Below the pieces are notes generated by a model. That model worked only from the letters and a program-made list of their open reading frames with translations, made no database searches and had not been told where the DNA came from. DNA of 64,000 bases. It comes from Paraspadella gotoi (taxonomy: Eukaryota > Animalia > Chaetognatha). Shown piece by piece: positions 3,001 to 63,028 of the stretch. A program made the translations under genes and the position numbers. The DNA is taken from positions 240,161 to 304,160 of the forward strand of contig JBJCIZ010000282.1 in NCBI GenBank assembly GCA_051294375.1, in the 5' to 3' direction. How positions within the stretch are numbered: the first letter of the stretch is position 1; the number at the start of each line of letters is the position of its first letter.

Positions 3001-3599
3001 GCTCGGGAAGGGCTCCGTGAAGGTGGCGGCGAACACGGCAAAGGGCAGAAGTGGATCGGCGCCGCACTTCTCCAATGGTAGGTCCACTTACCCCAACAGG
3101 TCGGGGCGGACAGAAACAGGACAGGAAGTGACATAGTGCATGACGACGACTTTCTTTGACTTCTTTGGTGAATCCTCGTGATGAACGTGCATAATAGCCT
3201 GGAGCGTAATGATTTATTTAATTAATTCCATGATACTGCATTCTAAAAAGTTGCAAAATAGTAATTCTTATTTAAATAACGAATTTTTCATTTATTATTT
3301 TTGGAACGAAAACAAAATTCGTGAAACTGAGGAACTTTTTTTATCACTCGGACGGGATGGTCAAGGGGTGTAATAAGGATTTAGACATGTATATCTTACG
3401 TCAGGAAGAGGAAAAAAAAGATTTTATCCGCTCAGGACAAAAGATACGATTTATCTGACCAATCAGCGGTCAAGGATGGCTGTTGTCACTAATTTATTTC
3501 TGTAGAACAACAAAATAAATTTTTATTTGTTCGTCAATATATTTAAAAATTAGTTGTAGTGTAGTTTAATAATTAGAATACTGATAGATAGTTTTAGAA

Positions 3600-6500: not shown

Positions 6501-6603
6501 ATTCGATTGCCGCGATGGCTTTATAAGAGCCAGAATTAAGTCGCGCGCTCTTCTTCCTTCTGTTGAAACGAAAAAAGATTTTGAAACTTTGTTTTCTAAA
6601 TAA
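3600..6603 (+). pseudogene. Intron-containing DDE DNA transposase, hAT-like (possibly hATm-type), frameshifted
   Basis: Motifs: AREADRW..SDRMIAAIATAVL.DYG, FFDG (first D), VIGGDSTAV after splicing 5431-5506 (second D), CMLHTNELP (CxxH, in a shifted frame), HARWLTTA, HTQPVERMIK (E). Upstream exon-like pieces start at ATG 3600, with GT-AG introns at ~3727-3828 and ~4611-4969. The family assignment is inferred from motifs only. Confidence 0.8.
4697..4835. repeat. Tandem duplication of ~70 bp inside a transposase intron
   Basis: AACTAATAGTACGGTTTTTATGTAATTGGTTTGTATCATGAACAAGCAAAAAGTTAT occurs twice. Confidence 0.9.
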
Positions 6604-18537: not shown

Positions 18538-20719
18538 GGTTCTAGTTGGTTGGCGACTTCGCCATGGCGATATCGCCAGGGCTTTGGCGATGTCGCCAGT
18601 CCCCCCACTGGCGACCTCGCCAGTGATAAAAGTAGCAAATATAATGAAAAGCGCAGCTAACACGGGATGAGCATCACCTTCAGGCTCCTCTCCAACCCTA
18701 ACCCTAAACCAAACCTCCCGTTCAACTCTGTGCCTCTCCCCTAACCCTAACCCGGGCCTGGGCTCCCGTACATCTCCATGCCTCAACCCTAACCCTAACC
18801 GCCTTGATGCATCAACCACGGCCCCTCCCCAACCTAACCCTAAACCAACCTTCTGTTCAACTCTGTGCCTCTCCCCTAACCCTAACCCAGGCTCAGCCTC
18901 CGTACATCTCCGTGCCTCAACCCTAACCCTAACCGCCTTCGATGCATCAACCACGGCCCCTCCCCAACCCTAACCCTAAACTAAGCCTCCCGTTCAACTC
19001 CATGCCTCTCCCCTAACCCTAACTCAGGCCCAGCCTTCCGTACATCTCCGTGCCTCAACCCTAACCCTAACCGCCTTCGATGCATCAACCATGGGTCCCT
19101 CCCGCAACCCTAACCCTAAACCAAGCCTCCCGTTCAACTCCATGCCTCTCCCCTAACCTAAACCAGGCCCGGCTCCGTACATCTCCGTACCTCAACCCTA
19201 ACCCTAATTGCCTTCGATATATAACCCACGGGCCTCTCTCCCAACCCTAACCCTAAAACCGGGCCCAGGCCTCCCGTACATCTCCTTACCTCAACCCTAA
19301 CCCTAATTGCCTTCGATATATAACCCACGGGCCTCTCTCCCAACCCTAACCCTAAACCGGGCCCAGGCCTCCCGTACATCTCCGTGCCTCAACCCTAACC
19401 CTAACGCGGGCCTCTTGGTCATCACAACACCCTGCCCTACCCTATCCCTACAATTGACATTAATAATAAGCCTAAAATAAACTTAACTTAACTCAACCCT
19501 AACCTAACCCTAAACTACTCAACCCTAACCCTAAACTACTCAACCCTAACCCTAACTACTACTACTCAACCCTAACCCTAAACCAACTCAACCCTAACCC
19601 TAACCCTAATCTGAGTTTATTTTAGGCGAAATCGCCATAACTAGAACGCTAGATGTAGTTCAGTGCGAAATCGCCAAATCGCGACTTAGCCATGACGCCC
19701 TCGCCATTTGGCGATTTAGCTGTGAACTACATCTAGCGTTCTAGTTATGGCGATTTCGCCTAAAATAAACTCAGATTAGGGTTAGGGTTAGGGTTGAGTT
19801 GGGTTTAGGGTTAGGGTTGAGTAGGTAGTAGTTAGGGTTAGGGTTGAGTAGTTTAGGGTTAGGGTTGAGTAGTTAGGTTAGGGTTGAGTAGTTTAGGGTT
19901 AGGTTGAGTTAAGTTAAGTTATTTTAGGCTTATTATTAATGTCAATTTTAGGGATAGGGGTAGGGAGGGTGTTGTTGATGACCAAGAGGCCCGCGTTAGG
20001 GTTAGGGTTGAGGCACGGAGATGTACGGGAGGCCTGGCCCGGTTTAGGGTTAGGGTTGGGAGAGAGGCTCGTGGGTTATATATTCGAAGGCAATTAGGGT
20101 TAGGGTTGAGGTACGGAGATGTACGGGAGGCCTGGGCCCGGTTTAGGGTTAGGGTTGGGAGAGAGGCCCGTGGGTTATATATCGAAGGCAATTAGGGTTA
20201 GGGTTGAGGTACGGAGATGTACGGGAGGCCGAGCCTGGTTTAGGGTTAGGGAGAGGCATGGAGTTGAACGGGAGAGCTTGGTTTAGGGTTAGGGTTGCGG
20301 AGGACCCATGGTTGATGCATCGAAGGCGGTTAGGGTTAGGGTTGAGGCACGGAGATGTACGGAAGGCTGGGCCTGAGTTAGGGTTAGGGAGAGGCACAGA
20401 GTTGAACGAAGGCTTGGTTTAGGGTTAGGGTTGGGGGAGGGGCCCGTGGTTGATGCATCAAGGCGGTTAGGGTTAGGGTTGAGGCATGGAGATGTACGGG
20501 AGGCCCAGGCCCGGGTTAGGGTTAGGGGAGAGGCACAGAGCTTGAACGGGAGGTTTGGTTTAGGGTTAGGGTTGGGAGAGGAGCCTGAAGGTGATGCTTC
20601 ATCCCCGTGTTAGCTTGCGCTTTTCATTATATTTGCTACTTTTATCACTGGCGAGGTCGCCAGTGGGGGGACTGGCGACATCGCCAAAGCCCTGGCGATA
20701 TCGTCAACCAACTAGAACC
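18538..20719. mobile_element. ~2.2-kb fold-back palindrome of a telomere-like minisatellite element (CCCTAA-rich left arm, TTAGGG-rich right arm)
   Basis: Arms 18538-19662 and 19723-20719 are inverted copies around a 60-nt imperfect centre. Arms consist of AACCCTAACCCTAA anchors separated by GC-rich spacers. Confidence 0.9.
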
Positions 20720-34067: not shown

Positions 34068-35212
34068 GTATATATTTAAACATGTTTCGTAACTATGTCG
34101 TATAACCGTTAAGACAGAACAAGGTAAAAACTAAGAGTTCTGTAATATAAATAACGTTAGAGCATCCCTGTGGAATAACGAAATTAAAAAAAATTTAAGA
34201 TTTTATGTATAGTTAATAACATAGAAGCATTTAAAGTTTATCATATCATTATAAATCATTAAAAAAAATTTTTTCTAAATCAGAATTTTTAAAAACGGGT
34301 TCGGGAAGAGCTTGAAAAAATAACTGAAAAATAATACTACAAGATTTCTAAATTGTTATGTTTTATTGGTTAAAATTAGCAAAAACAATAAAAATTATGG
34401 TATGATGATGATGATGATGATGATTTTAAAAAGTTTTTCCATTATTTGACCCACTTATCATCAAAATATTGAAAAACGCATTATACTTTGTGTGACAACT
34501 TTTTATGAGCTATCTGAATCCGTTCTTAAAAAAAAATTTTTACCAAAAAAATTTTTCATTGACTATACATTGATAAATATTTAAATGCTTCAATGTTAAA
34601 CTCTGCTTCACTAGTTAAAAAGTAATAGTAAATATTGATTAAGTATATGATAGACAAATGAATTTTATAAAAATTTGCAAATTACATGTTTCACTATTTT
34701 CTATTTTTATATTTTATGAAGGATTTAGTATTTAATTTATATTGTTTAAACAATATATATTGCTTTCTTTCTTACTAATCTTACTAATCATTATATCTAA
34801 TAACTCAATTTGGGAAGGGGAAGTCAGTGTTGTCTTCTGGAAATAGAGGGGGCATTTATACAACACAAGGTTAAATTACAATCTGTCCTAGTTTTCTAAT
34901 AGATATCACACATCATTTCTGTTAGAAAATCATTATTAAAAAATCATAATATCTAAGAGGCTGAACAGAAAGGGGTAGGAATGGATAATTTTTTGAGGGG
35001 GGACCAAAGTTATATGTGATTTTTTTACCAATAGGGATAAGACTACCATGTAGAATTGTATGTTCTGATAGAGATACATACTGGGGAAAGGTCTATAGGG
35101 GCACTTTATGACATGAATATAATTTTAAAATACTTTAATGAAAATTATATTTTTTCTTTATCCTATTTTTAATTTTTTTTTTTTTGAATATTTTTTATTT
35201 TTAATGTTTATA

Positions 35213-35320
35213 CAATGGGAAGGTCATCAGTTTGGAACCTATACCCTTCATGGATTTCGGCTCTTTAATCCCAATATCCAGGTATAGGCGAGGCATCACC
35301 AAATGGTGATCCTTCAATGG
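35213..35320 (-). ncRNA. Structured RNA motif in the PLE 3' pseudo-LTR, copy 1 (candidate scrambled hammerhead, two helix mismatches)
   Basis: Same motif as 42141-42247, with TCCAAA for TCCCAA and GCCTC for GGCTC. Confidence 0.4.
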
Positions 35321-35784
35321 TTGCTTATCTTATATTTTAAAGGTATATTTTTGAATGTTTAATTTAGACAGACCAAAGCCCTAGTATCACAGCTTTATTA
35401 TTTTAGGAAATTTATTAAGGTTTTGTAATAATTTGTAAATTGTAAATGAATTAAATAAGTTAAATAATTAGTTAAGTATTAAGTTAAATAAATTTAAAGG
35501 TTATTTTGAATGTTTATTTTAAACAGACCAAAGCCCTAGTATCACAGCATTATTAATTTTAGGGAAATTTATTAAGGTTTTGTAATAATTTGTAAATTGT
35601 AAAGGAATTAAATAAGTTAAATAATTAATTAAATATTAAGTAATAATCAAGGGTATGTTAATGTAAAGTTAACATTAAGTAAATTAATAAAAGTTAAAAA
35701 ATAAGTTAAATCAAAGAGTTAAATAATTTAAATTAGTTAAATAAGTTTTTTAACTAATATTGTTGATGTTATTATTATTATTAT

Positions 35785-38555
35785 TTAAAGTGGTTTAATT
35801 TTGTTATTTTTACCTTATTATTTCTATTAGGAATTATCATGTATAATCTTTTTCGAAAATAGATTAATATCAGTAGACGAGTTATATTTTTTTATTAGTT
35901 CGCTTATGTATATTATTTGAAAAAAATTTAATGAATCCCTTTTTCTTACAGTCTTCTAAATATATAACCCTGATTTTTGTAGTTTTTTGGCTTAATTATT
36001 GCTGCTCGCTTGAGTGAAAAATCTGTAAACATCGAACATATTCTTGCATATCTAATGTAACTTGGGTAATAAATGAACACCTAGTGGCTCGGCCTTTGTC
36101 TGGGAATACAACTATCATATGCATGGCGTAATTAACTCACTTCAAAAGAAAAGGAATCTCTTTTATCATAAACAGAAAGAGTAAGATTTTTGTTTTCTGA
36201 CTTAAAGTTAATGTCTAGATAATCTACATTTGTATCTGTACTATTAGATTTATTGACAGTAAGTGCTGCTGGATATATGTTAGCAAGATGTGTTTTAAAA
36301 TCCTTAAAATCTGCTGAAAAAAGGTCATCAATATATCTTGAGCAATTTTTAAATTGTCGAGCGATTCCTAAATTATTTTTTGACATATTTAAAATAAAAT
36401 AACAACATATTGGCAATATCTTGACCAGAATCTAGTCCAATTGGTATTCCTAATGTTTGTTTATATATTAAGGAGCCAAATTTGACAAAAACATTATCTA
36501 AAATAAAGTTGAGGAAAATATTTAAATCTTTCTCAGTAAAAGAAATATACCCCTTATTCTTAGTATTTGAAAAATATGCCTTTTTATGATTTACATTTAT
36601 GAATGTTTAATTTTCCCCAAAAAAAATTGTTCTGAAAGTAATTTTTAGGTTACTCCAGATTTCATAATGGGGAAGTGATGGATATAATGTTGAAAAATCA
36701 TAAGCTTCTAAAAATTCTGTTTTTAATTGAGAAATATTTTTCAAAAGCTCCAAAGAATTATCAATTATCCAATAATGTTTTATTCTAGATCTTTGAAAAA
36801 CTACTTGATAGTATACTTTAATTTTAATTTTTTAATTTTAAACATTTTTAAAAATGTCTGGATATTGCTTTGATAGAACATATTTTAGAACCAGCTATGT
36901 ATCTTTGTTTTGTAGGACATTTATGCATTTTAGGAATAAAATAAATAATAGGAGTTTCTTTCATTTCATCTTTTACTTTAACTCCATAATCTTCACTAAA
37001 TTTAGCTATTCTGTTATTGATAATTTCAGCGGTTTCATTAGTGACATTATATGATTGTGAATCTATTAATTCTTCTTTTAATCTTTTATAATAGAATTTT
37101 TTACACATAAAAATAATATTGCTTTGAGCTATGTCCACTGGTGTTATTATAAAATTATCTTGTAATATATTTAGTTCAGTTTTTAAAGAACCTGTAATAT
37201 TTAATGGAAAAGTATTTTTAATTTTATTCTTGCAATGTTCTATCCGTTTTTTAACTAAATTTAAAACTTCTTTTTTCCATACATTTAATACATTGATATT
37301 TATATTTATGTCTTTATTGGCCTGATTTTCTTTTTTTATCCAATCTTTAGCATATATGTCTAAGAAGTCTGCTATATTTTCCATATTTTTTATCCAATTT
37401 ATTTTTCTAGGTAGTCTATATTTTGGTCCTTTTTTCAAAATTATCTTTAAATTTTCATTTTCTATTATATTCAAATTACCTGTGATAATATGGTTATGAT
37501 GTGGATCTTTAAATGTAGAATTTTTGCAATCACAGACCATTAGATTTATAACAATATTGTTAATATCCTCATTTTGCAAGTATTTTTTATAATTGAATAT
37601 TAAACCTGCTATGCTCTTATTATATCTATATCCTATTATTGGGGGTTCATTGTAATTAAAATATACTGGTATTTTGTTCTATATGGTTTTACTATTTAAA
37701 ATTCCACTAAGATTAATATAGTCTAAGCCTTTATCTATAAAAGTAATGTGGTAATATTCTATTTTTTCTAATTTTTTCTATTAAAACAGGTTTAAATAAT
37801 CGTATACCTGATATCATTATAATGCTATCTCGTAAATTTCTATATTCATTATCATTCATATATTTACTCTCATTATATAGAATCAATAATTTTCCACGTG
37901 GCAAACTATAAAGATAGGTTTTAATATAATGCATGATTTTTTATATTATTGTATAAATTTTTTTAAATAAGTTAAAGTAAAAATATGCCCTGGTCTTCTA
38001 TTTTTTGGTTTTCTTTTTCCGTGTGATCGTTTTTTCTCTTTGTATTTCCATATATTTGATAGTTTTGTTGAAATGGTACAAAATCTCCTATACCTTTTAA
38101 TCTTACATTTAATCCAAAAGGGTAAAGAGATTGAAATTTTCTTTCCCAATGTGCTTCCCTTTCTAGTCTTAATTTATTTTATTTATTATATTATTCATTG
38201 GTCTAATTTTTTCTATTGGTATAATTCTAGTTTTCTAGACCATGATTTTCATTGTTAAAATGTTGATGGATAATTTGAGAACTTTTTCCTGACCTTATAG
38301 AATGTTTATGACCATTAAACCTTATTCTTAAACTATTTCTTTGTTTCTCCTATATATTGCAGTTGAACAGATATGACATGATATTAATTATATTATATTT
38401 TCTGTATTACAAATTAAAAATTTGAGCCATTTAATATTGGAAAAATATGTATATTTGTTTGATTTTAATTTAAAAAATTACATTCTTGAATAAAGGACAA
38501 GTGCCGCACCTACCTTTTTTGTTGCATTTTGTATATTATTAAGATTTAGAGCCAT
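35785..38555 (-). pseudogene. Naiad-type PLE ORF: N-terminal GIY-YIG endonuclease, CxC linker, C-terminal reverse transcriptase (frameshifted)
   Basis: Across frameshifts: RCGTCP, CNTEN, ISC..C.LQYIGET, RFNGHK, EREAHW (EN). Linker CDCKNS..DPHHNHIITGNL, KGPKYR. RT: YFIPKMHKCP..RYIAGS, YDFSTLY, QTLGIPIG, RYIDDL, YLDI, VYDKRD.F.F. Confidence 0.9.
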
Positions 38556-39555
38556 AGTGTTAAAAAGAAAGTGAGTCGCAATGTTTATGACAAATTTACG
38601 TAATATTTATTCATATTTTTTGATTTCAGTATATTAAAAAAAGAAAATACCACTTAAGATTAAATCGATGGGAACACTTCTATGCTCCGCCAGCATTAAT
38701 AATCAAGGTACTAAATTTATGAAAATTTTGCAAATTACTTGTTTCACTATTTTGTATTTTTTATTTATTTTATAAAGCTATTTAGTATTTATATTAATAT
38801 TATTTAATCAAATATATTGCTTTCTTTTTTAAAATATTTTTAATATTATCTAATAACTTCATTTGGGAAGGGGAAGTCAGTTTGTCTTCTGGAAATAGAG
38901 GAGCATCTATACAACACAAGTTGAACGTTATCGAATCTGTCCTTTAGTTCTTATATAGAGTATCACACATCATTTCTGTTAGTAAAGTCGATTAATGAAA
39001 ATCATATATCTAAGAGGCTGAACAACAAAAGGGGTAGGAATGGATAATTTTTGAGGGCGGACACAACGTATATATATGATTTTTTTTTACCAAAGGGATA
39101 GACTGATGCGGTTCTGTAAGCCGTTAAGTTTTTAGAAAAACTGCTTAACCGTTAAAAACTAACGTTTTTTACACGGTTAACACCGCTTAAAATCGGTTAA
39201 TTTTTAATTTAACTTTAAATTTAAAATATTATATTTCATAAAACTAACTTAAAAGATATTTAATGGTTTTTTCTCCTTAACTCCGGCTACTAGAATCGTC
39301 TTTATCTTTCTAATGTACTGAACTGGCCAAAAAACTATCGAGCGTAGAGTCAGTAAGTACTAAGGTTTCTTCCTCTATCACAATTGACTTGCTAACGGCT
39401 TCTCTCAACTATCGCTGTCTTTCAGAACTATTACTATAAATGTAGTTTAGTATAGTTGGGCCACTGTCCTGCAGGGGTGAGGCAACAATAGCAGGGCGGC
39501 CCTGTGAAGAACCTTGTTGACGTAAGCGAAGCGAGTGAGCGAGAACAAGCGGGCT

Positions 39556-40041
39556 TGTTAGAAGTCTAAACCGAAAAAGTAAAATTAGAAATATGGACAA
39601 TGTGTTCACTATTTAATTAGACAAATAACTTAACAATTTGAAACTGGTTCTGAGTTTATAAAAGATTCTATTTTGCATCCATTTACCTTGTATTCCGGAT
39701 AGTCCAAGAAAAGTAAGTAAGGAACCACTTGCCAATAACTAAATATCTAAAAGAAAAAGCATTTACCAAAGATATTAAAGAAAAGCCAGCATAAGCAACA
39801 CGTGGGTGAATGACAAGTTTCCATTCGAAGATCGAAATGTAAACGTTGCGATTCACTGCGCATGCGCATGATTTATAAAATTAAAGGACTATTCTGCCCT
39901 CTGACGAGACTAATGGTTCCAAATCCTCCGGATCCCAAAAGTAAAGTTCAACAAAATAGCAACGTTAGAAACCGTTAGGGAAATAGTATGAAGAAGAGGA
40001 AGACAGAAATATTTAGCTTAATAATTTCTTAACACCCCCCG
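39556..40041 (-). repeat. Possible LTR plus polypurine tract nested in the hAT element
   Basis: TGTTAGAA...TTCTTAACA termini (39556-40034), preceded on the minus strand by GCGGGGGG. Confidence 0.4.
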
Positions 40042-41110
40042 CTTGGAAATAGTATCAGCATTTCCAATAAGGAATGGCAAGCAAGTATCAAGACATAAAT
40101 ATTTCTTAATGTTCGTAAATGGGGAAAGAAAGAAGCTGGAATGTAGAACACACACTGTACATACTTCACGGTTTAGCTTACACTATTTAACCAGACGCGA
40201 CATAAATCAGTCGCATTACTAGGAGTTCTGAGTAGGCCCAGAAGGACGGTGACCGAACCACTTTATTCGCAAAAGGTTTTGTTGTTATTTCGCGAGTTAC
40301 AAGATACAATTGAACAGGAAATTATGATAACAAAGACACTGACGAGGAAATTCAATTTATCACTCAACAAATAAACATGACCAAATAAATGGTAAACGGC
40401 AACGATTACAAACCACGCCACGACTCAAGGACTCCAGTTCAATTTCCACCCGATACACACCGGGCGTCGTGTTGCGGTTGTTTGTATCCGTTGACGTCGG
40501 TAACTACCAGTGTGCGTGGCACCGTCCGAGAGCCCCTAAGTTTCTAAACAAAAACGCCCGTTTTTTGGTGAAATACAAGAAAGTACTTATTATCCTAGGG
40601 ATACAAAGACACAAACGAACCAAAGGGAACTAACCAAACAATATCTATCTTATATATTTCGCTTGTAGAATAACTGGCTATCTCGGGCAACCAAATTCAA
40701 TTCCTTATAGTTGATAAATGAGAAAATTGGTTTGAAAAAACAGCATTATAATAAATTTTTCTTTTGCCTTATAGCATAATAAAAATATAAAAAAGAGAAT
40801 GAAAGAAAAAGCACAATATAATTTTAATTCTGTATATTTTGTTTTCTCTTTCTCTCTTTTTCTTTCTTTCTTTTGTTTTCGCTTTTTCCTTTTCTATTTC
40901 TCTTCCTCATTATTTTTATAGTTGTTAGTTTCTTGAAAGCATGTTTTCTGTTGTTAGTCTTTCATAAACCATGACCTTAAATATAAATATAATTATGAAT
41001 ATTGTGTTAAGACTTTCTTTTTGTTGCGTTTATAGATAAGTGAAAGCAAAATTTATTTTTATACAAACAACAGATTTTTATTTTTAAAAAACGGACATGT
41101 TTCGACTCTC

Positions 41111-41158
41111 ACGCGCTGATGTAGACTCGCAAAAACTAGAGTCGAAACATGTCCGTTT
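41111..41158 (+). ncRNA. Minimal type I hammerhead ribozyme motif (PLE/retrozyme-like) with a 1-nt insertion in the core
   Basis: GCG CTGATG(T)A GACTC-gcaaaaacta-GAGTC GAAAC-AT-GTC CGT, with palindromic stem III ACATGT. Confidence 0.6.
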
Positions 41159-42140
41159 TTTGGAATAAAAACCCGTTGTTTGTAAATAAATAAACTTTGT
41201 TTTCTCTTAATTATGAATATCAATTTATTAATTGAATGGTTGAATGATCGATTGATCAAAAAAGTTATTAATTAATAAATATTTTTTTAAATTTTATTAA
41301 AGTAAAGTATATTATCATTGAAGGATAGTTTTAGTTAGCCTTAATGTCTTTTCAAAGATTCATTCCTTCTGTTGTTCATTTTTAAAATGTTTTCTAATAA
41401 TTTTTTTATTTTAGTTTTTTTTTTAAATTTTTTCATTCATTCGGCTTTATTTTATTTACTTCTTTGTTCGTTTTAAAAATTAAAAGAAAAAGTTAAAAAA
41501 AGTAAAATAAGAAAGATTATTTATTTTTTTTATTAGCAAAATAGAATATTATTGCATCTAAAAATTTTATTTGCAAAAAAATATATGCAGATGCATATTA
41601 TATTTCAAAATATTCTTTGATGTAAATGTATAAAATTAGCTGAAAGGAAAAACGAAAACAATTGGGAGAAAGTAAGTAAAAAAAAAACCAGAGAGGCAGA
41701 AAAAAATGATAATAGATTAAAATAGAAAAAGATTTAAAGGGTTGAAAATAAAAAAGAAAAAAAAAGGGGAAAATGTAGAACAGAGAAAGAAAGGGAGAGA
41801 AGAAGGAAAAAAAATTTTTTCTTAAAAAATCAAAGTTTCATAACAAAAAACAACAAAAATCATACTTGAAAATTAACCGTTAAAATAAATATATTAACGG
41901 TTAAGTTAAAATTATTTTTAACCATTAATAACCGTTAACTGTTAACGGTTATCGGAACTCTAGATAAGACTACCATGTAGAATTGTATGTTCTGATAAAG
42001 ATACATACTGGGGAAAGGTCTATAGGGGCACCTGTATGTCATGAATATAATTTTAAAATACTTAAATGAAAATTATATTTTGTCTTTATCCTATTTTAAA
42101 TTATTTATTTTTTGAATATTTTTTATTTTTAATGTTTATA

Positions 42141-42247
42141 CAATGGGAAGGTCATCAGTTGGGAACCTATACCCTTCATGGATTTCGGCTCTTTAATCCC
42201 AATATCCAGGTATAGACGAGCCATCACCAAATGGTGATCCTTCATTG
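42141..42247 (-). ncRNA. Structured RNA motif in the PLE pseudo-LTR, copy 2 (candidate scrambled/pseudoknotted hammerhead ribozyme)
   Basis: Contains CUGAUGA, GAAA and UA, with six complementary helix pairs in a GC-richer island in otherwise very AT-rich UTR. See findings. Confidence 0.5.
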
Positions 42248-42963
42248 TTGCTCATCTTATATTTTAAAGGTATATTTTGAATGTTTATTTTAAACAGACC
42301 AAAGCCCTAGTATCACAGTTTTATTAATTTTATGGAAATTTATTAAGGTTTTGTAATAATTTGTAAATTGTAAATGAATTAAATAAGTTAAATAATTAAT
42401 TAAGTATTAAGTTAAATAATTTTAAAGGTATATTTTGAATGTTTATTTTAAACAGACCAAAGCCCTAGTATCACAGCATTATTAATTTTAGGGAAATTTA
42501 TTAAGGTTTTGTAATAATTTGTAAATTGTAAATGAATTAAATAAGTTAAATAATTAATTAAATTTTAAGTAAATAATCAAGGGTATGTTAATGTAAAGCT
42601 AACATTAAGTTAATTAAAAAAGTTAAAATAAGTTAAATCAAAGAGTTAAATAAGTTAAATTAGTTAAATAAGTTTTTTAACTAATATTTGATGTATTATT
42701 ATTATTATTTAAAGTGGTTTAATTTTGTTATTTTTACCTTATTATTTCTATTAGGAATTATCATGTATAATCTTTTTCGAAATAGATTAAATATCAGTAA
42801 CATTATATTTTTTTATTAGTTCCTTAAAATTATTGAAAAATTTAATTCCCATTTTTCTTAAGTCTTTAAATATATAACCCTGATTTTGTAGTTTTTTGCT
42901 TAAATTTATTGCTCTTGATGAAAAATCTGTAAACATCGAACATATTCTTGCATATCTAATTAA

Positions 42964-45900
42964 TTGGGTAATAAATACACCTCGTGCTGCTTTTCTAGGA
43001 ATACAACTATCCATATATGGGTAATTAACTACTTCAAAAGAAAAGGAATCTCTTTTATCATAAACAGAAAGAGTAAGATTTTTGTTTTCTTATTTAATAT
43101 TAATGTCTAGATAATCTACATTTGTATCTGTACTATTAGATTTATTGACAGTAAGTGCTGCTGGATATATGTTAGCAAGATGTGTTTTAAAATCCTTAAA
43201 ATCTGCTGAAAAAAGGTCATCAATATATCTTGAGCAATTTATATATATATTATTAATATATTACAGAACTCTTAATGATAAAAAGTGATCAATTTTGGCC
43301 TGCCTTAATAACCATGCACTGTAAATATATTCTGTAACTATGTATAACCATGCTTTGTAACTATGTACTATTAATATAATTTATATTCAACATTGTAAAT
43401 ATGTACTGAAAATACATGTAAATATTAAGGCATAGTGAAAGTTACATACGAAAATTCTAAAAGTCAATTATGAACAACATACCATCAGTGAACATTAATT
43501 TGTAAAAAAATTAATTTTATGTTTTTTAATTTTTGTAGTAGGCTATATTTATATATAGTACTATCCTTATAATATCGAAAATTTTCAAAATAGGCTTTTC
43601 TTAATTTTGATTGCAGATTTGAATTCCTCGTCAAAAGTTGATGAAAGAAAATATAAATCATTTTTAAAAATTCTTTCATTAAGTGGGTTAAAAATTAAAA
43701 AATACTATATTTAATATATAAAAAGTTAATTTTCAGCTTAAAATATAGCTTTTTCTAATTTTTGACCCACTTAATAAAGGAATTTTTCAAAAAGAGTTAT
43801 ATTTCTTATGACAAATCCAAATCTGCAAAAAAATCTTAAAAAAACTGTTTTGAAATTTGAACATTTCTTGGTTTAGTACTTGTATAAATGTGGCCTACTG
43901 CGTAAATTGTAAAATTTATTGTAAATTTTTTTATTACATAAATGTTCATTAGTATAATATTGTTCGTTCCTCACTTTTGGAATTTTAATTAAAGTTAAAT
44001 TTAGAAATTTTACTACGCCTTAGTAAATATCATTCAACTTTAATTTTATTTATTTAATTAATTAGTTAGCATTTCTTAAAATTGTTTTTCGCTTGGCTCC
44101 ATCTCTTTTTCGCCTGTCAGGGTTTTGAGCACGACAAAAGAATAAAGCGTTATTATTATTCAAAGAGAGAGAGAGAGAGACATAGATAGAAAGAGAGAGA
44201 AAGAGAGAGAGACATAGATAGAAAGAGAGAAACTCGAAACCATCACCGCTGGGGATGGCTTCGTTGCGTTAATATCAGGAGTGCTATTGGTAAAAATTGG
44301 CCTCTCTTCTGCTCAAAAACTTGGTTCCACACAGACAACATTTCTAGAAATAGTTGCTTTTTAACTATAGTTTTTTCAGTCCGCCCACCTTAAAAATATA
44401 CTGAATGAAACATCTGTAAAATAAAAATAAATAATTTAAATATATGATTTAAAAATAAGTACGATGGCGGTTTTTTTAATGTGGATCTTTTTATTATTGG
44501 CAGCGGTGTCGGTCAATAGTTTGAGAATTTTTTTGTCTAGGTGGTTCGGGATTGCAAAATGAATGCGAGTCTTCATTGTCCTTGCTTGCCCCTGGGCAAA
44601 GCTTTTTTTTTAGGAGCGCTTCGAGATCAAAGTCGTCAATAGTAGAAACCGCTGCCAAAGTCTTGGAAGCATAACGATGGTGATGACCTCTTTTTCCCAT
44701 GGGAGAGAGAAATTTGCGAGGCTGCAGTTTTCCATCTCAATCTCCTTCCCCTCCCACCTCACAATCATCCACCTCCTCTTTATTCTCCTCTCCTACCTCC
44801 TCAGCCTCCTTCTTCGTTGCTATTTCATATCAATGGAGGCTGCTGCTGCCGCCACTTAATTTCACCAATGGTCTCCAATGATATTATTTGCTAGGAGTTG
44901 CCTCATTGTATGGTGAGTTGGAGGACAATTGTTGCTGGAAGCACTGACAAGCCAGAAGAAGATGCAGCCCTAGCTTTGGTGATCGAAGCCTCGACGGCCG
45001 GAGGCCGAAGGCGATGTACAAAGGGACTTCGGCCGTCAAGGCTTCGATCACCAAAGCTAGGGCTGCATCTTCTTCTGGCTTGTCAGTGCTTCCAGCAACA
45101 ATTGTCCTCCAACTCACCATACAATGAGGCAACTCCTAGCAAATAATATCATTGGAGACCATTGGTGAAATTAAGTGGCGGCAGCAGCAGCCTCCATTGA
45201 TATGAAATAGCAACGAAGAAGGAGGCTGAGAGGTAGGAGAGGAGAATAAAGAGGAGGTGGATGATTGTGAGGTGGGAGGGGAAGGAGATTGAGATGGAAA
45301 ACTGCAGCCTCGCAAATTTCTCTCTCCCATGGGAAAAAGAGGTCATCACCATCGTTATGCTTCCAAGACTTTGGCAGCGGTTTCTACTATTGACGACTTT
45401 GATCTCGAAGCGCTCCTAAAAAAAAGCTTTGCCCAGGGGCAAGCAAGGACAATGAAGACTCGCATTCATTTTGCAATCCCGAACCACCTAGACAAAAAAA
45501 TTATCAAACTATTGACCGACACCGCTGCCAATATAAAAAGATCCACATTAAAAAACCGCCATCGTACTTATTTTTAAATCATATATTTAAATTATTTATT
45601 TTTATTTTACAGATGTTTCATTCAGTATATTTTTAAGGTGGGCGGACTGAAAAAACTATAGTTAAAAAGCAACTATTTCTAGAAATGTTGTCTGTGTGGA
45701 ACCAAGTTTTTGAGCAGAAGAGAGGCCAATTTTTACCAATAGCACTCCTGATATTAACGCAACGAAGCCATCCCAGCGGTGATGGTTTCGAGTTCTCTCT
45801 TTCTATCTATGTCTCTCTCTCTTTCTCTCTCTTTCTATCTATGTCTCTCTCTCTCTCTCTTTGAATAATAATAACGCTTTATTCTTTTGTCGTGCTCAAA

Positions 45901-47055
45901 ACCCTGACAGGCGAAAAAGAGATGGAGCCAAGCGAAAAACAATTTTAAGAATGCTAACTAATTAATTAAATAAATAAAATTAAAGTTGAATGATATTTAC
46001 TAAGGCGTAGTAAATTTCTAAATTTAACTTTAATTAAAATTCCAAAAGTGAGGAACGAACAATATTATACTAATGAACATTTATGTAATAAAAAAATTTA
46101 CAATAAATTTTACAATTTACGCAGTAGGCCACATTTATACAAGTACTAAACCAAGAAATGTTCAAATTTCAAAACAGTTTTTTTAAGATTTTTTTGCAGA
46201 TTTGGATTTGTCAAAGAAATAATAACTCTTTTTGAAAAATTCCTTTATTAAGTGGGTCAAAAATTAGAAAAAGCTATATTTTAAGCTGAAAATTAACTTT
46301 TTATATATTAAATATAGTATTTTTTAATTTTTAACCCACTTAATGAAAGAATTTTTAAAAATGATTTATATTTTCTTTCATCAACTTTTGACGAGGAATT
46401 CAAATCTGCAATCAAAATTAAGAAAAGCCTATTTTGAAAATTTTCGATATTATAAGGATAGTACTATATATAAATATAGCCTACTACAAAAATTAAAAAC
46501 ATAAAATTAATTTTTTACAAATTAATGTTCACTGATGGTATGTTGTTCATAATTGACTTTTAGAATTTTCGTATGTAACTTTCACTATGCCTTAATATTT
46601 ACATGTATTTTCAGTACATATTTACAATGTTGAATATAAATTATATTAATAGTACATAGTTACAAAGCATGGTTATACATAGTTACAGAATATATTTACA
46701 GTGCATGGTTATTAAGGCAGGCCAAAATTGATCACTTTTTATCATTAAGAGTTCTGTAATATATTAATAATATATATAAATTGCTCAAGATATATTGATG
46801 ACCTTTTTTCAGCAGATTTTAAGGATTTTAAAACACATCTTGCTAACATATATCCAGCAGCACTTACTGTCAATAAATCTAATAGTACAGATACAAATGT
46901 AGATTATCTAGACATTAATATTAAATAAGAAAACAAAAATCTTACTCTTTCTGTTTATGATAAAAGAGATTCCTTTTCTTTTGAAAGTAGTTAATTACCC
47001 ATATATGGATAGTTGTATTCCTAGAAAAGCAGCACGAGGTGTATTTATTACCCAA
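42964..47055. repeat. ~4.1-kb near-perfect palindrome (arms ~2 kb) centred near 45015 and ending at an N gap
   Basis: Mirror-image ORFs (44884-45132 minus and 44898-45146 plus; 44494-44700 minus and 45329-45577 plus). The arms differ mostly by 1-nt indels. Confidence 0.95.
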
Positions 47056-47509
47056 NNNNNNNNNNNNNNNNNNNNNNNNNNNNNNNNNNNNNNNNNNNNN
47101 NNNNNNNNNNNNNNNNNNNNNNNNNNNNNNNNNNNNNNNNNNNNNNNNNNNNNNNTATGATACTAAGAGAGATTAGGAACAACTTAACTCATCCGTTAGA
47201 GTTTACGACATGCGTTTACGTATCACTCTCGCTCATCTATGCGTGGCGCGTCCAGTTTCCGGCGCGATTCACACTTCCGCAGCGGCATTTACGCGAGCGA
47301 GCACTCTCTCACCGCGCAATGTAATCGTCGACACTAGAGTAGCTTCTCCCATGCCAGCAAACGTGCCCTTCTAACGACTAATTCTATCTCGTTACTAATC
47401 TGTCCAGGCGTGATCCGATTTGCACCCTCCACCGCGCCGTGAGGTCTCCGGGGCACGACGTGAGTACTCATCGCAACCGGCATGCCGCCTTCTCGTACAT
47501 CCCTAACAC

Positions 47510-56025: not shown

Positions 56026-56260
56026 GGGCCCGTGATTGATGCATCGGAAGGCCCCGTAAGGGTTAGGGTTGAGGCATGGAGATGTACGGGAGGCGCCAGA
56101 CCCGGGTTAGGGTTAGGGGAGAGGCAAAGAGTTGAATGGAAGGCCCCCGGTTTAGGTTAGGGTTGGGGGAGGGGGCCCGTTTAGTTGATGTGTTTGAAGG
56201 CGGTTAGGGTTTTAAATGGGAGGTCTGGTTTAGGGTTAGGGTTGAGAGAGGAGCCGTGGT
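56026..56260 (+). repeat. Continuation of the TTAGGG-module minisatellite after the LTR element
   Basis: GGGTTAGGGTTGAGGCATGGAGATGTACGGGAGG and related modules. Confidence 0.85.
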
Positions 56261-56752
56261 GAATGTGTACATTAAAAGGCGGAACAGAATTGACGGCTAA
56301 TGAGATGGATAGGCCAGTCTATCAAATACATAGTTTTGGTGTGTGCAAATAGTTTAATGCTTCGATGAGAAACAAAAGATTTTTATAAAATATATCTAAT
56401 CTGTGTGAGCAGGCGCAACTCATTTTATTTATCGAGTTTGTTACGTGTCCGTAAATTTCTCTGATTTCTCGTTCTGCTGAGTTGGCAGAAATAGGTTCAA
56501 CGTGACTTTGGCTTCTATAGAAAAATTAAAGCACATAGCGAATAGGTTAGGGTTGCTCACTAAAATTTGAAATTAATTCAAATTTTTTTAAAATATTTTT
56601 TTTATTTGAATACATAACAATTTTAAAAACTGTATAGATAAAGCATGACATAAACTTTAAAAAGATTAAGGCAAACAAATAAATGAGTTAAGATTTAAGA
56701 CAATGAAATTACAAACAAAATGAATTTTCGTCACAAACAAAAAATTAAACGT

Positions 56753-59700
56753 TTAAACGTTTCCAAGCAGCCCCGCGAAATCTCTCTTTGTTTCAGCCTT
56801 GGGAAGTGATTCCCTCGATTCCATTCGTGCGCGCAAATAATTGTTTCTTTCATTATGGCCAGCAATTTTACCACAAACATCCGTCAAATCGCGAATCATT
56901 CGCTCGACAGATTGGGTGTGAGACGGAAAATGCGGAATATTCAATTTGTTCAGAATCAAATCCTGCAGATCGGAGATTGTGAGGTCGCAGGTGAGGACTG
57001 GTTCGTAAATTGTTATCGAATCCCAATCAATTAGTTCGGCAATAGTTTCCGCCTTGGAGGTGAGAAGGGGAGGAACAAACTTTTCTGACCGATTTATCCC
57101 GGAATCATTCCCTTGACGGGAGAGCAATGATTTTTTCCGACGGCAAATGCGCGAAGATCGGGATTGTCGTCGCAGAGCAAACTGACGAGGAGGTTTTCCG
57201 GGTGAGCGTTCCAAGACTTAATATAGGGGAAACGATATCTCTGGTTGACTGAGGAAGTAGACGGAAGACGTTGTATTTGGAATAGGGTGTGATTTGCAGC
57301 ATCGGCAATATGCGGGCGAGATTTAATTGAGAACCAAGAAGCAGCATAATTTGTAAGTGAATAAAAAACTAATTTGTAGAGATTGGCTTTAATCTTTCCT
57401 TAAAAGGGTGTTTCGAGAGATAAAGCCGGCCCAAACGGCAAGCCAAAGTCAACACCAGCGTGAATGCGAGATCGGGCCAGGCTTCAGATTTTTAATTTGA
57501 GGTTCAATTGTTCCCGCTTTGAATAGATTTAGCGACGAAGGTAGAGATATTTTTTGGTCGGAAGATAAATCCGAAAGTATCTCTTCTTTCAACAGAAAAA
57601 TTTCAGGACCATTAGAAATTGGAACGAATTTTTCATTCCAATCCAGAGGTTTATACGGTAGGCAAAGCTTTTCCAATTGGTCCTTTGAAAGAATTATTGC
57701 CTGTAGTTGGGCCATCAATAGCTTGAAAAAGGTGGCGCAGACCAAGTTCATTGGTGGTGTAAGCTGCAGATGGCCCAATGAACTTTTTTCCTGGCGATGG
57801 TCCTCGATCTTTTTCACAATCCCGCCAATTGGACCGGTATTGACGGCGGTAGAATCAACGCCGACGACTTTTAAATCCTTTGTGAGGTTATACTCATCAA
57901 GGAATCGCAGGATTGCGTCGGATGTTGGTCCAGCAGCTTTTCCCGTAGGCGTTACATGAGTGAGAAACTTCCCATCTGGCTGAGACACCAAAACGATATG
58001 CTCCTTTTTTTCTTTTTTCTGACGACGCACACGTTTTCTTCTACCACCTCCAATGTCTCAATTTCCTTTCCGTCGAAATAAACGCCCTCCACCAAGTCTT
58101 GCCTTTAATCTTTGTTCTTCTTTCACGCTGCAGTTTTTGGCGAACTTTTTTCTTTTCACGACGAATACGCTCACGATCGATGACACATGAGAGGTCGTCG
58201 GAAGTGACGATGGCCAAAGTCGAATGAGGAACGGCGGTGGCGATCGCTGCGGTTAAACGATCCGACGCTCCCCATCGCATCGCCTCACGCGCCGTCGTCG
58301 GGTAGAGGAGGGATTCGATACGAGTCCTCTGAAAAGGGTTTATTAATTAATGATAATGCTTGATGTTATGCTTAATTTGTCAGTTATAAAAGTTAGACTA
58401 CTATTTTAATCTAAAAACACGATAAGTATTACAATCACTAAAATTACATATTCATGCAAGGTCATTCTATAAAACTACAAAGACTATTATTTAAAACTAC
58501 TTCACACTTGAAATGGATTTATTGAAATAATACCTTTGTTTAAAAGGTTTAACGGATCCAGCTGTTAAAAATGCTTAAAAGTTGAAGTACAGAAGTATTA
58601 ACATTTTTTCTTTATAAGATTTTTTACCCTTTGAGATTAAATTCTATTTCATCCCGCGTTGAAGGTTCTTCTTCAATCAAGATTTCGCTGAGTTGCTCTT
58701 GACGCCAGATTTTGTCCTCCTCCCTTGTCCTCTCAATAACTTTGGCGGAATGGTTTTCTTTTAAAAACTCTTCACGCGAGCCTACAAAATAAAGCAAATG
58801 GCGGATAAAAAATAATCATACTTAGTAATAATAAAAATAAAAAGTTCTAATTTTTAATGATTAAAAGGCAGAAGTTTTTTTAAATGTTTACAAATAAATA
58901 ATTATTAATCTTCAAATACAGACATGTTTCGGCTTTAGTACAAAAGTAATAAAGCTGAAAATATATCCGTGTTTGAAAATTAAAAATTCGTTATTTATAA
59001 ACATTTTAAAGGAACCTCAGACTATCAATATCAAACGCGATGAAAAAGAAAGAAAATATACAATGTCTAAAATTTATTGAAATATATCTGAGAGATTAAG
59101 GTAAGTAAAACGTTAACAATGTAAAAAGCAGAGAGAATGACTGAAATTTAAAAAAAAAAATACTTATTTAAGAAGTTACCTTTCGCGCCTCGATTTTTTT
59201 CAGTTTTTTGCTCGTTGGAATGTCAATTCGACCAATTTGCAGACGGGGGAGATGAGAATGGCGATGACGTTGCGCAAAAATAAATTCGCGCTCGGCAAGT
59301 GGAATCTTATCGTGAAGGGCGCAGTTGCAGTCCACGTGAACGTTGTCTTCCCCATCTCTTTCCATCGGACATTGGCAAATTAAAACCTCGAAAACTTGAT
59401 CGAGTTTTGAGACAAAATATTTTTGTTTGGAATCCAGAGAACTACTTCGTTGGTAGTATCTCTGCTTCTCGCGAGCTCGCTTTACTTTTATCGCGATTGA
59501 GAAAGTGTTGAAGAGAGCAAGCGATGTACTTGCTCGACCGTAAACATGGACGATCTCTTTCGCGACGTCTTCAAAAAGGCAAAAATCGACAGATCGACCC
59601 TTCTCCTGTAACCATTGATGCTTTGGGTTAAAAATATGTAATTAAACATTGAAATAAAAAATATTTTAACCTGGAGTAATGATACATAAGCCAAAACGTC

Positions 59701-59957: not shown

Positions 59958-60669
59958 ATCAAAGCTTTTTTTTATTTTTTGGGCGGCAAAATTTAATAGA
60001 AATTAACAATTTAGGAACGGAAAGCTTTATGTAACCTGTCATTCAGAATGCTTTCGTGCGTCAAACTGTTCAATATTTTTTAATTTATTTTTTTGTTTTT
60101 GAACATTTTTTTTCGAACAGTTAATCAATATATTTTTGATAGACCTTTTAGTTTTGACTTTGTTTCCGCCTTACTGATCAATCTACGAAAACGGATTCTT
60201 GGGAAAGAGGTTTTCTTTTTCTTTTTTCCTTTTTCTTTTTTCTTTTCCGTTTCTTCTTTTTTCTTTTCTTTTTTAGGATTTCGAGTTCGTGGTAAGAAGT
60301 AGCGGATTAAAAAAAGTACATTAATCGAAGTGAGAAACGTAAAAGTTACGGGTCGTTAGCTTTTTAAAATCATTTTTCCTTTTTTGATCTTTTTTTCAAG
60401 GAAAGAAGAAAAAAATTGTTTAAAGAGAAACTGCACATCTAAAAAAAAAATTTTATGAAAATTGTGAAGGTTAATCAGAGCCCTTATTTAACTTTAGATA
60501 GAAACAAGTGGATAACACTTATTTAGATCATTAATATATATAACTTAGTGTGTGTTAAAGATAGTGACGNNNNNNNNNNNNNNNNNNNNNNNNNNNNNNN
60601 NNNNNNNNNNNNNNNNNNNNNNNNNNNNNNNNNNNNNNNNNNNNNNNNNNNNNNNNNNNNNNNNNNNNN

Positions 60670-63028
60670 GAATCATTCCCTTGACGGAGAGCAATGATTT
60701 TTCCGACGGCAAATGCGCGAAGATCGGGATTGTCGTCGCAGAGCAAACTGACGAGCAGGTTTTCCGGGTGAGCGTTCCAAGACTTAATATACGGGGAAAC
60801 GATATCTCTGGTTGACTGAGGAAGTAGACGAAGACGTTGTATTTGGAATAGGGTGTGATTTGCAGCATCGGCAATATGCGGGCGAGATTTAATTGAGAAC
60901 CAAGAAGCAGCATAATTTGTAAGTGAATAAAAAACTAATTTGTAGAGATTGGCTTTAATCTTTCCCTTAAAAGGGTGTTTCGAGAGATAAAGCCGGCCCA
61001 AACGGCAAGCCAAAGTCAACCAGCGTGAATGCGAGATCGGGCCAGGCTTCAGATTTTTAATTTGAGGTTCAATTGTTCCGCTTTGAATAGATTTAGCGAC
61101 GAGGTAGAGATATTTTTGGTCGGAAGATAAATCCGAAAGTATCTCTTCTTTCAACAGAAAAATTTCAGGACCATTAGAAATTGGAACGAATTTTTCATTC
61201 CAATCCAGAGTTTCTACGGTAGGCAAAGCTTTTCCAATTGGTCCTTTGAAAGAATTATTGCCTGTAGTTGGGCCATCAATAGCTTGAAAAAGGTGGCGCA
61301 GACCAAGTTCATTGGTGTGTAAGCTGCAGATGGCCCAATGAACTTTTTCCTGGCGATGGTCCTCGATCTTTTTCACAATCCCGCCAATTGGACCGGTATT
61401 GACGGCGGTAGAATCAACGCCGACGACTTTTAAATCCTTTGTGAGGTTATACTCATCAAGGAATCGCAGGATTGCGTCGGATGTTGGTCCAGCAGCTTTT
61501 CCCGTAGGCGTTACATGAGTGAGAAACTTCCCATCTGGCTGAGACACCAAAACGATATGCTCCTTTTTTTCTTTTTTCTGACGACGCACACCGTTTTCTT
61601 CTACCACCTCCAATGTCTCAATTTCCTTTCCGTCGAAATAAACGCCCTCCACCAAGTCTTCCTTTAATCTTTGTTCTTCTTTCACGCTGCAGTTTTTGCG
61701 AACTTTTTTCTTTTCACGACGAATACGCTCACGATCGATGACACATGAGAGGTCGTCGGAAGTGACGATGCCAAAGTCGATGAGGACGGCGGTGGCGATC
61801 GCTGCGGTTAAACGATCCGACGCTCCCCATCGCATCGCCTCACGCGCCGTCGTCGGTAGAGGAGGGATTCGATACGAGTCCTCTGAAAAGGGTTTATTAA
61901 TTAATGATAATGCTTGATGTTATGCTTAATTTGTCAGTTATAAAAGTTAGATACTATTTTAATCTAAAAAACACGATAAGTATTACAATCACTAAAAATT
62001 ACATATTCATGCAAGGTCATTCTATAAACTACAAAGACTATTATTTAAAACTACTTCACACTTGAAAATGGATTATTGAAATAATACCTTTGTTTAAAAG
62101 GTTTAACGGATCCAGCTGTTAAAAATGCTTAAAAGTTGAANNNNNNNNNNNNTACATTTTTTCTTTATAAGATTTTTTACCTTTGAGATTAAATTCTATT
62201 TCATCCCGCGTTGAAGGTTCTTCTTCAATCAAGATTTCGCTGAGTTGCTCTTGACGCCAGATTTTGTCCTCCTCCTTGTCCTCAATAACTTTGGCGGAAT
62301 NNNNNNNNNNTAAAAACTCTTCACGAGCCTACAAAATAAAGCAAATGGCGGATAAAAATAATCATACTTAGTAATAATAAAATAAAAAGTTCTAATTTTT
62401 AATGATTAAAAGGCAGAAGTTTTTTTAAATGTTTACAAATAAATAATTATTAATCTTCAAATACAGACATGTTTCGGCTTTAGTACAAAAGTAATAAAGC
62501 TGAAATATATCCGTGTTTGAAAATTAAAAATTCGTTATTTATAAACATTTTAAAGGAACCTCAGACTATCAATATCAAACGCGATGAAAAAGAAAGAAAA
62601 TATACAATGTCTAAAATTTTTATTGAATATATCTGTAGAGATTAAGGTAAAGTAAACCGTTTAACAATGGTAAAAAGCAGAGAAGAATGACTGAAATTTT
62701 TAAAAAAAAATACTTGTATTTAAGAAGTTCCTTTTCCGGGCGCCTCGATTGTTTTCAGTTTTTTGCCTCGTCGTGGGAATGTCAATTCGACCAATTTGCA
62801 GACTGGGGAGATGAGAATGGGCGATGACGCCATTGCGCAAAAATAAATTTCTGCGCTCGGAAGTGGAAGTCTTATCGTGAAGGGCGCAGTTGCAGTCCAC
62901 CGTGAACGTGTCTTTCCCCATCTCTTTCCATCGGACATTGGCAAATTTAAAACCGTCGAAATACTTTGAGTCGAGTTTGAGACAAAATATTTTTGTTTGG
63001 AATCAAGAACTACTTCGTGGTAGTATCG
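60670..63028 (-). CDS. hAT-like DDE transposase, family 2, copy B (core exon open, 3' end in a gap, exon 1 absent)
   Basis: ORF 60555-61835 with YFDG, VGVDST, CSLHTNEL.LRH, HSRWLT and NAHPEN. Near-identical to 57101-59460. Confidence 0.85.

Follow-up and report, generated by a model that had tools for sequence, protein, structure and literature searches.

Does the pseudo-LTR of a Naiad retrotransposon encode a self-cleaving RNA whose parts are strung together in an order that no classical hammerhead ribozyme has? The 64,000-nt stretch of DNA analysed here (the window) raises this question with a motif on its minus strand (Table 1), in which an earlier note, made from the letters of the window, recognised every conserved hammerhead nucleotide. 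Naiads are Penelope-like elements (PLEs) that have been concluded to be without canonical hammerheads (Craig 2021, PMC8557442). Based on sequence comparison, we propose that the motif is a real and conserved hammerhead variant that is probably active, and that its class is likely that of the non-circularly permuted hammerheads (types SGC and CSG), with the backbone open between A9 and G10.1. Here and below, statements on published work refer to the portions of the cited papers that were available to us.

Layout of the motif

A segment-by-segment check of the intact copy found complete pairing in hairpin Y (6 of 6 bp) and in stems II (5 of 5), III (5 of 5, with U16.1-A15.1) and I (6 of 6), and helix X consists of 5 bp followed by 4 bp past a 2-nt bulge. 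All hammerhead core nucleotides and stems I-III lie beside their correct partners, and every segment is at the place that the earlier note had given it. Its account of stems and linkers needs one correction, as the two 'gu' linkers that it had left single-stranded pair mutually and extend helix Z from the 7 bp first described (7 of 7 paired) to 9 bp; this longer helix directly abuts stems I and II.

The motif shares with the hammerhead class the CUGANGA, GAAA and U-H core, the G10.1-C11.1 and A15.1-U16.1 pairs, and stems I-III formed by the right partners. It has neither the circular C-G-S order nor the three-way junction of types I, II and III, and its strands run in the order cut site, GAAA, CUGAUGA (S-G-C). 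CUGAUGA is found 64 nt downstream of the stem II 5′ strand, and A9 is followed directly by the 3′ strand of X. The earlier statement that this order is none of types I, II and III is correct; S-G-C has already been published as type SGC (Eckert 2023).

Table 1 Features of the predicted ribozyme motif and of its host element in the window.
Feature	Position	Strand	Basis
Whole motif, intact copy; core-opened, likely non-circularly permuted hammerhead	42141..42247	-	sequence, pairing check, descriptor
Helix X, 5′ strand	42239..42247	-	pairing check; junction spacers
Hairpin Y, 6 bp and 4-nt loop	42223..42238	-	pairing check; counterpart in relatives by RNAalifold
Stem II, 5′ strand (G10.1 = 42222), detached from CUGAUGA	42218..42222	-	pairing check, covariation
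Helix Z, 5′ strand, 9 bp; same as the 'interaction' helix between stems I and II in type SGC	42209..42217	-	pairing check, contigs, covariation
Block S	42197..42208	-	pairing check
Block S, stem III strand (U16.1 = 42204)	42208-42204	-	pairing check
Block S, A17 and predicted cut	A17 = 42203; cut 42203/42202	-	cut site by analogy with hammerheads
Block S, stem I 3′ strand	42202-42197	-	pairing check
Block G: stem II 3′ strand 42191-42187, GAAA 42186-42183, stem III strand to 42179	42179..42191	-	
One-sided 5-nt bulge between stem III and Z, possible hinge	42174..42178	-	
Helix Z, 3′ strand	42165..42173	-	pairing check, covariation
Truncated block C: stem I 5′ strand 42164-42159, CUGAUGA 42158-42152	42152..42164	-	
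Helix X, 3′ strand, directly after A9	42141..42151	-	pairing check, junction spacers
5′-truncated Naiad copy: C-terminal part of RT (43239-42787), 3′ UTR/pseudo-LTR	41963..43240	-	
Tandem duplication of ~158 bp in 3′ UTR just upstream of motif, intact-motif copy	42576-42261	-	
Equivalent ~158-bp tandem duplication, damaged-motif copy	35333-35644		
Second, damaged motif copy; one mismatch each in stems I and II	35213..35319	-	
Near full-length, frameshifted Naiad copy	35036..39104	-	tblastn
GIY-YIG region upstream of CxC motif and RT (37934-35949)	38403-38032	-	tblastn; Pfam on matching part of P0003
5′ end of further Naiad copy, in tandem directly after the damaged-motif copy	34661..35044	-	blastn, 84% to 38713-39104

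Host element and state of the family

The intact motif lies ~540 nt past the end of the ORF of a truncated element, with the predicted cut ~240 nt before the 3′ end of the element, and the window holds two motif copies only, the second of which differs from the first at 4 of 107 positions. Assignment of the host to the Naiad group of PLEs, as the earlier note had it, is upheld by the position of the GIY-YIG region and by partial tandem copies forming pseudo-LTRs in the window (tblastn and blastn). In P0003, a full-length relative, Pfam places a GIY-YIG domain at residues 53-119, and residues 49-184 match the window region listed in Table 1, upstream of the CxC motif (CDC in the window ORF) and the RT. 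This corresponds to the Naiad domain order, in which the GIY-YIG endonuclease is N-terminal to the RT (Craig 2021, PMC8557442). The DKA motif is present in the closest relative (P0001) and reads DIA in the damaged window copy. Pfam recognised neither the seven window fragments nor P0001, and the family assignment rests on relatives.

Several further features surround these copies. Long near-perfect palindromes (43033-45006 with 45024-46998; around 19692, arms 18565-20706; 14525-15782) may be fold-back artefacts of amplification or assembly, and a Naiad fragment at 46772-47055, which extends into an N gap, mirrors 43033-43248 and the sequence past it. A satellite at 18685-20600 and 56056-56270 consists of telomere-like CCCTAA units with spacers, and three related long ORFs (4951-6603, 56753-58057, 60555-61919) encode proteins that we take to resemble DNA-transposon transposases.

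To place the two window copies within their family, we used contigs of four sequencing runs from three studies (contigs only; 143, 38, 15 and 23 placed on the motif region). The majority of the family is intact, unlike the damaged window copy. A single difference reaches at least 3% in the four runs, at 42216, where nearly all depth is C on the minus strand; this letter makes one linker pair of Z Watson-Crick and is the one majority letter that the intact window copy lacks. Among the four differences of the damaged copy, one is this majority letter, one disrupts a pair in stem I and one a pair in stem II; its three private changes are absent at the 3% level from all four runs. Since the stem-breaking letters are not listed in the contigs, it is this copy that is damaged, and the possibility raised earlier of a family consensus with broken stems does not hold.

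In several contigs with 4-10 differences, the match is confined to the stretch between about 42147-42153 and 42221-42243, beyond which the sequence is unrelated; this suggests that other families in the same organism share the motif without its flanks. Three observations concern contig ends and depth around the predicted cut. One contig stops matching the element at 42205 and continues as a TA run, which would fit 5′ truncation at the cut (n=1); one deep contig ends at 42202, such contigs being too few to count; and summed contig depth, a measure that cannot rank parts, falls across 42200-42215 in three of the four runs.

Comparison with known hammerheads

In the scheme of Eckert 2023 (PMC10085705), hammerheads consist of blocks C, G and S, which can be joined in six orders and are assumed not to be interruptible, and insertions at the step from CUGANGA to stem II are at most 1-2 nt. 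In vitro, RNAs of types SGC and CSG are cleaved where predicted, and their activity depends on each of the four stems (PMC10085705). The window motif resembles type SGC (HRIMA-1 and variants, PMC10085705) in its S-G-C order, short linker from stem I to stem II, full core, two pseudoknot stems, and a helix, named 'I' there and Z here, that connects stems I and II at their far sides. Unlike type SGC, however, its block C is interrupted, with the stem II 5′ strand and one strand of Z lying 5′ of the cut site and the A9/G10.1 gap closed by X and Y. As the unbroken block C is missing from the window motif, and likewise from the Naiad loci described below, we do not file it as type SGC; by analogy, it likely works like this type. 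Type SGC RNAs are known from metatranscriptome contigs, none of them from the genome of a known organism, whereas the window motif resides in an animal-type retrotransposon.

Type CSG (CSG-1 and CSG-2, PMC10085705) belongs to the same topological class, and the window motif corresponds to a CSG hammerhead joined end to end and reopened at A9/G10.1. It differs in having an intact block C and no X/Y junction, and its published sequences number only two, both metagenomic, in the part of that paper available to us. The canonical type I hammerheads of PLEs (PMC4209133) share with the window motif the pseudo-LTR, the sense strand, the proposed processing of tandem precursors and a possible dimer, but differ in their C-G-S order, three-way junction, short stem III and lack of a pseudoknotted core.

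A literature search conducted mostly outside subscription papers returned no rearranged hammerhead in Naiads and no helical junction at A9/G10.1. The available part of PMC3088659 gives core insertions of 1-2 nt only, and the parts seen of a 2026 retrozyme preprint, PMC13725137, PMC10162972, PMC544870 and PMC3376415 contain nothing on the opened layout. Weinberg 2015, as cited in the available part of another paper, describes hammerhead variants with additional helices, which could bear on novelty. Judged by these comparisons, the class and the S-G-C order are known, and the opened core and the animal retrotransposon host appear to be the new parts.

Recurrence in other Naiads

A protein search led to a single relative (P0001), and a search of cluster representatives with P0001 gave 150 among the matches listed; an alignment of 10 relatives then yielded the best 80 of 529 confirmed metagenomic loci. 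Collecting the motif from other Naiads, a check proposed earlier, showed that it recurs. Among the best 80 of 529 loci, a strict descriptor of the layout matched seven on the sense strand and none on the antisense strand; looser settings matched 10, and a search free of strand order added L157 for a total of 11, all on the sense strand (L122 and L123 are identical in sequence). Nine of these motifs are located 307-1244 nt past the RT match and two in the upstream pseudo-LTR. When 59 downstream regions were searched free of order, the stem II 5′ strand was followed by S, G and C in turn in all nine matches scoring at least 34. Two weaker matches (31 and 30) combined a mismatch in the core with other orders, and no shuffle scored above 28. 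L187 is without hairpin Y and L157 without clear X/Y, and each has an extra hairpin between Z and stem III (4399-4500 in L187, 4480-4610 in L157).

The distribution of the motif is patchy. It is missing from 28 of the 37 loci with at least 600 nt downstream, some of which may end too early, and 41 loci are too short downstream to judge; absence from so many loci indicates that the motif is dispensable for many Naiads. In a quick RT tree built without reference elements, motif loci fall on at least four separate branches, and the motif needs five changes, at least four of which are forced by well-supported branches. The motif would be either old and often lost, or gained several times. Loci L124, L129, L135, L136, L145, L152, L159, L160, L172 and others extend more than 1.6 kb downstream with no hammerhead motif or Rfam match, and such Naiads may use another ribozyme or none; a twister-like word matches 1 of 52 downstream regions, which is uninformative. 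Viral contigs contained no Naiad relatives.

Two of the relatives have other features of note. The Naiad 3′ UTR of L164 contains a weak SECIS_1 match (3318-3385, E 0.4, below gathering score), and some Naiads have been reported as selenoprotein-encoding. P0016 is a Naiad-like ORF (GIY-YIG, RT) with a C-terminal ubiquitin hydrolase domain (PF00443, E 4e-10).

The same layout can be found in published Naiad consensus sequences. Craig 2021 (PMC8557442) found CUGANGA/GAAA words fitting no descriptor in 17 of 54 consensus sequences, and flagged nine Naiads as HHR_core and eight as HHR_half_core, proposing no structure in the part available to us. In File S5 of that paper we read by eye all Naiad occurrences of CTGATGA, CTGACGA and CTGAGGA and the first 10 of 43 of CTGAAGA, and the resulting counts, made by eye and not by a tool, miss words split over lines. 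At least 10 of the 54 consensus sequences have the opened layout: three from Acropora, one of them with a mismatch in stems I and II; one from Beroe, with a stem I of only 2 bp; two from Octopus, with a short X; and one each from Clytia, Morbakka, Pomphorhynchus and Darwinula, names that were assigned by file order. An intact type CSG with a Z-like closing helix is present in at least 6 of the 54, at the 3′ end of consensus sequences in the nematode part (three from Nippostrongylus, one from Haemonchus, one assigned to Pristionchus by file order, and one unassigned in part 16). Both counts leave out places in a spider, other Darwinula, Euprymna and Saccoglossus. The spider place and three Darwinula places share another arrangement, in which a further conserved word lies upstream of a C-run and CTGACGA.

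Covariation, conservation and chance

Covariation was assessed in two sequence-only MAFFT alignments, one of L148, L149, L151, L153 and L175 (A4, five rows) and one of both window copies, L121 and L123 (A5, four rows). L187, L192, L157 and the duplicate L122 were left out of the counts, as was a MAFFT alignment of 10 motifs together, in which the groups were out of register. In A4, 96.0% of 225 cells are paired and 8 of 45 pairs are changed on both sides, with pseudoknot stem II showing compensatory change in 5 of 6 pairs and pairing in all 30 cells. In A5, 96.9% of 96 cells are paired and 11 of 24 pairs are changed on both sides (II 3, Z 2, III 2, I 4). Covariation scores lie above 500 of 500 shuffles in both alignments, which are small and of related rows, so that relatedness alone can beat shuffles; controls with slid partners are 25-52% paired. 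The count of further pair types does not beat all shuffles (68 and 283 of 500). Compensatory changes are thus found in stems I, II, III and Z, including the two stems whose covariation had been put forward as a check on the earlier reading.

RNAalifold alone predicts X, Y, Z and III on A4. Helix X has the weakest covariation count, with its three junction pairs invariant in A4, and its letters differ between the groups yet still pair; Y covaries modestly, with one pair changed on both sides. The spacers A9-X, X-Y and Y-II measure 0/0/0 in six of the nine motifs and never exceed 1 nt in the remaining three, in agreement with the earlier claim that X and Y bridge the gap from A9 to stem II with no spare nucleotides. 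Together, X and Y are predicted to close this gap as a four-way junction.

Across 10 distinct motifs, CUGANGA (except N7), GAAA, U16.1, G10.1-C11.1 and A15.1-U16.1 are invariant, and 12 of 14 positions in stems I-III have at least two Watson-Crick pair types; here pairing is given by construction, but the variety is not. The U-H site reads A in five motifs and C in five and never G, which the descriptor excluded. The core also proved more conserved than its flanks, another point raised beforehand, both in these motifs and in the 3′ UTR, where the best local alignment of the window with L121 and L123 is the motif itself.

The full-layout descriptor matches the intact copy alone within the window and passes 0 of 20,000 core-fixed shuffles. 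Block shuffles of the whole window gave any match in 13 of 4,395 cases, one of which reached the real score of 37. Among the matches listed, 0 of 120 unrelated viral loci and 1 of 120 prokaryotic loci, all pre-selected for core words, passed the descriptor, the latter at minimum lengths and with a score of 28; pattern scans of viral contigs (at least 120 and 6 loci) and prokaryotic genomes (at least 120 loci) gave chance-level matches only. Since the descriptor was written after the motif had been seen, the independent Naiad loci carry the weight.

Rfam gave no ribozyme family match in window positions 34500-47500. Matches to ribozyme families were likewise missing from 14 loci when E was allowed up to 0.5 and, at gathering score, from 20 Naiad loci that are without the motif; with no hammerhead match in the window region and the 14 loci, the motif is invisible to Rfam, in line with the earlier supposition that standard descriptors miss it. 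The pseudoknot-free fold of the window motif is not unusually stable (z -1.27) and has competing folds of equal energy, a type of folding that cannot show stems I and II and does not decide between monomer and dimer. Inspection by eye of the window, L121, L123 and the L148 group revealed no kink-turn in consensus form beside X or at the Z/III bulge.

Proposed mechanism and alternatives

We consider it likely that the motif is a self-cleaving ribozyme which, cutting after AUA (42203/42202), frees element RNA from tandem transcripts. The nested rod of X, Y, Z and III would fold first. Its apical loop, comprising the cut site, the stem I 3′ strand, the stem II 3′ strand and GAA, would then pair with an internal loop formed by the stem II 5′ strand, the stem I 5′ strand and CUGAUGA, giving two pseudoknot stems and an ordinary core. 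The four strands A9-X, X-Y, Y-stem II and stem II-G12 would form the four-way junction, in which stem II may stack on the G12-A9 and A13-G8 pairs, and X on Y across them. Such stacking is expected from the general behaviour of four-way junctions. The usual loop-loop contact would be replaced by Z, which would link stems I and II at their far ends. The role of the ribozyme would be to cut element RNA out of tandem or read-through transcripts; release from tandem transcripts is the standing hypothesis for PLE hammerheads (PMC4209133, PMC8557442).

Whether this fold forms within one molecule or between two hinges on the junction of Z and stem III, and structural considerations lead us to lean towards one molecule. 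In hammerheads, helix III stacks on II with I alongside (PMC4209133). With III stacked under II, and Z and III nearly continuous, a monomer needs a sharp U-turn: Z would run back along II and III and turn into III at a hinge provided by the one-sided Z/III bulge. All but one of the 10 motifs measured have such a bulge, of ~5-10 nt, and in L187 a hairpin is inserted at this place, as a hinge would require. The less likely arrangement, which we regard as a possibility of perhaps half that standing, is that the same ribozyme is active only as a dimer, in which antiparallel rods would each pair their apical loop with the internal loop of the other; cutting would then be confined to tandem or multimeric transcripts, a special case of the self-cleavage proposed above and not an addition to it. 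The nearly continuous rod of Z and III, with 0 nt on one strand, would suit this arrangement, as would the tandem Naiad copies in the window and the view that metazoan PLE hammerheads are dimeric (PMC4209133). One ostracod consensus in File S5 has, by eye, a Z/III bulge of only 1 nt, which fits a dimer or fraying. However, SGC RNAs, some with a 0-nt link at this place, cleave during transcription, in experiments that do not separate dimers (PMC10085705).

An improbable alternative to self-cleavage is that the fold is conserved and hammerhead-derived but non-cutting or protein-dependent, serving as a recognition or priming structure for the Naiad RT-endonuclease. Given that blocks are assumed unbreakable, with insertions of 1-2 nt at most (Eckert 2023, PMC10085705), the junction at A9/G10.1 could impair the core, and no precedent for an opened core was found. 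In a Poseidon element, insertion in vitro was unaffected by hammerhead mutations, the hammerhead depended on protein for cleavage, and its cut coincided with neither the start nor the end of any read (PMC11167929); minimal PLE hammerheads, moreover, cleave poorly (PMC4209133). Against a loss of cutting, none of the 10 motifs has lost a catalytic nucleotide or the U-H site even as the stem sequences change, and nematode Naiads carry an intact CSG, metagenomic representatives of which cleave (PMC10085705). Finally, the idea that short complementary words came together by chance in a structured 3′ UTR, or that the assembly created the motif, has a negligible probability despite the long palindromes and frameshifted copy that suggest a rough assembly, the single window shuffle at the real score and the one bacterial locus passing minimum thresholds, and is refuted by the motif's presence in contigs of four runs from three studies and by its sense-strand-only recurrence, with covarying stems, in independent Naiad loci.

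Implications

The self-cleaving reading leads to a broader one, which we consider probable: Naiads of several animal phyla would share an active hammerhead of ancient origin, wired in a seventh way beyond the six permutations considered possible, opened at A9/G10.1 and held by a four-way junction, with the nematode CSG as its sister form. An opened core contradicts the published assumption that CUGANGA and stem II are inseparable. If the reading is true, the opened and intact forms would offer a natural series for the interconversion of non-circular RNA permutations, and a core that tolerates a four-way junction at A9/G10.1 would be a new attachment point for ribozyme engineering. It would also explain why many Naiads seemed to be without a PLE hammerhead, and account for the unexplained 'half cores'. 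Hammerheads of the non-circular class have so far come from anonymous metatranscriptome and metagenome contigs, and would thereby gain a genomic home in animal retrotransposons.
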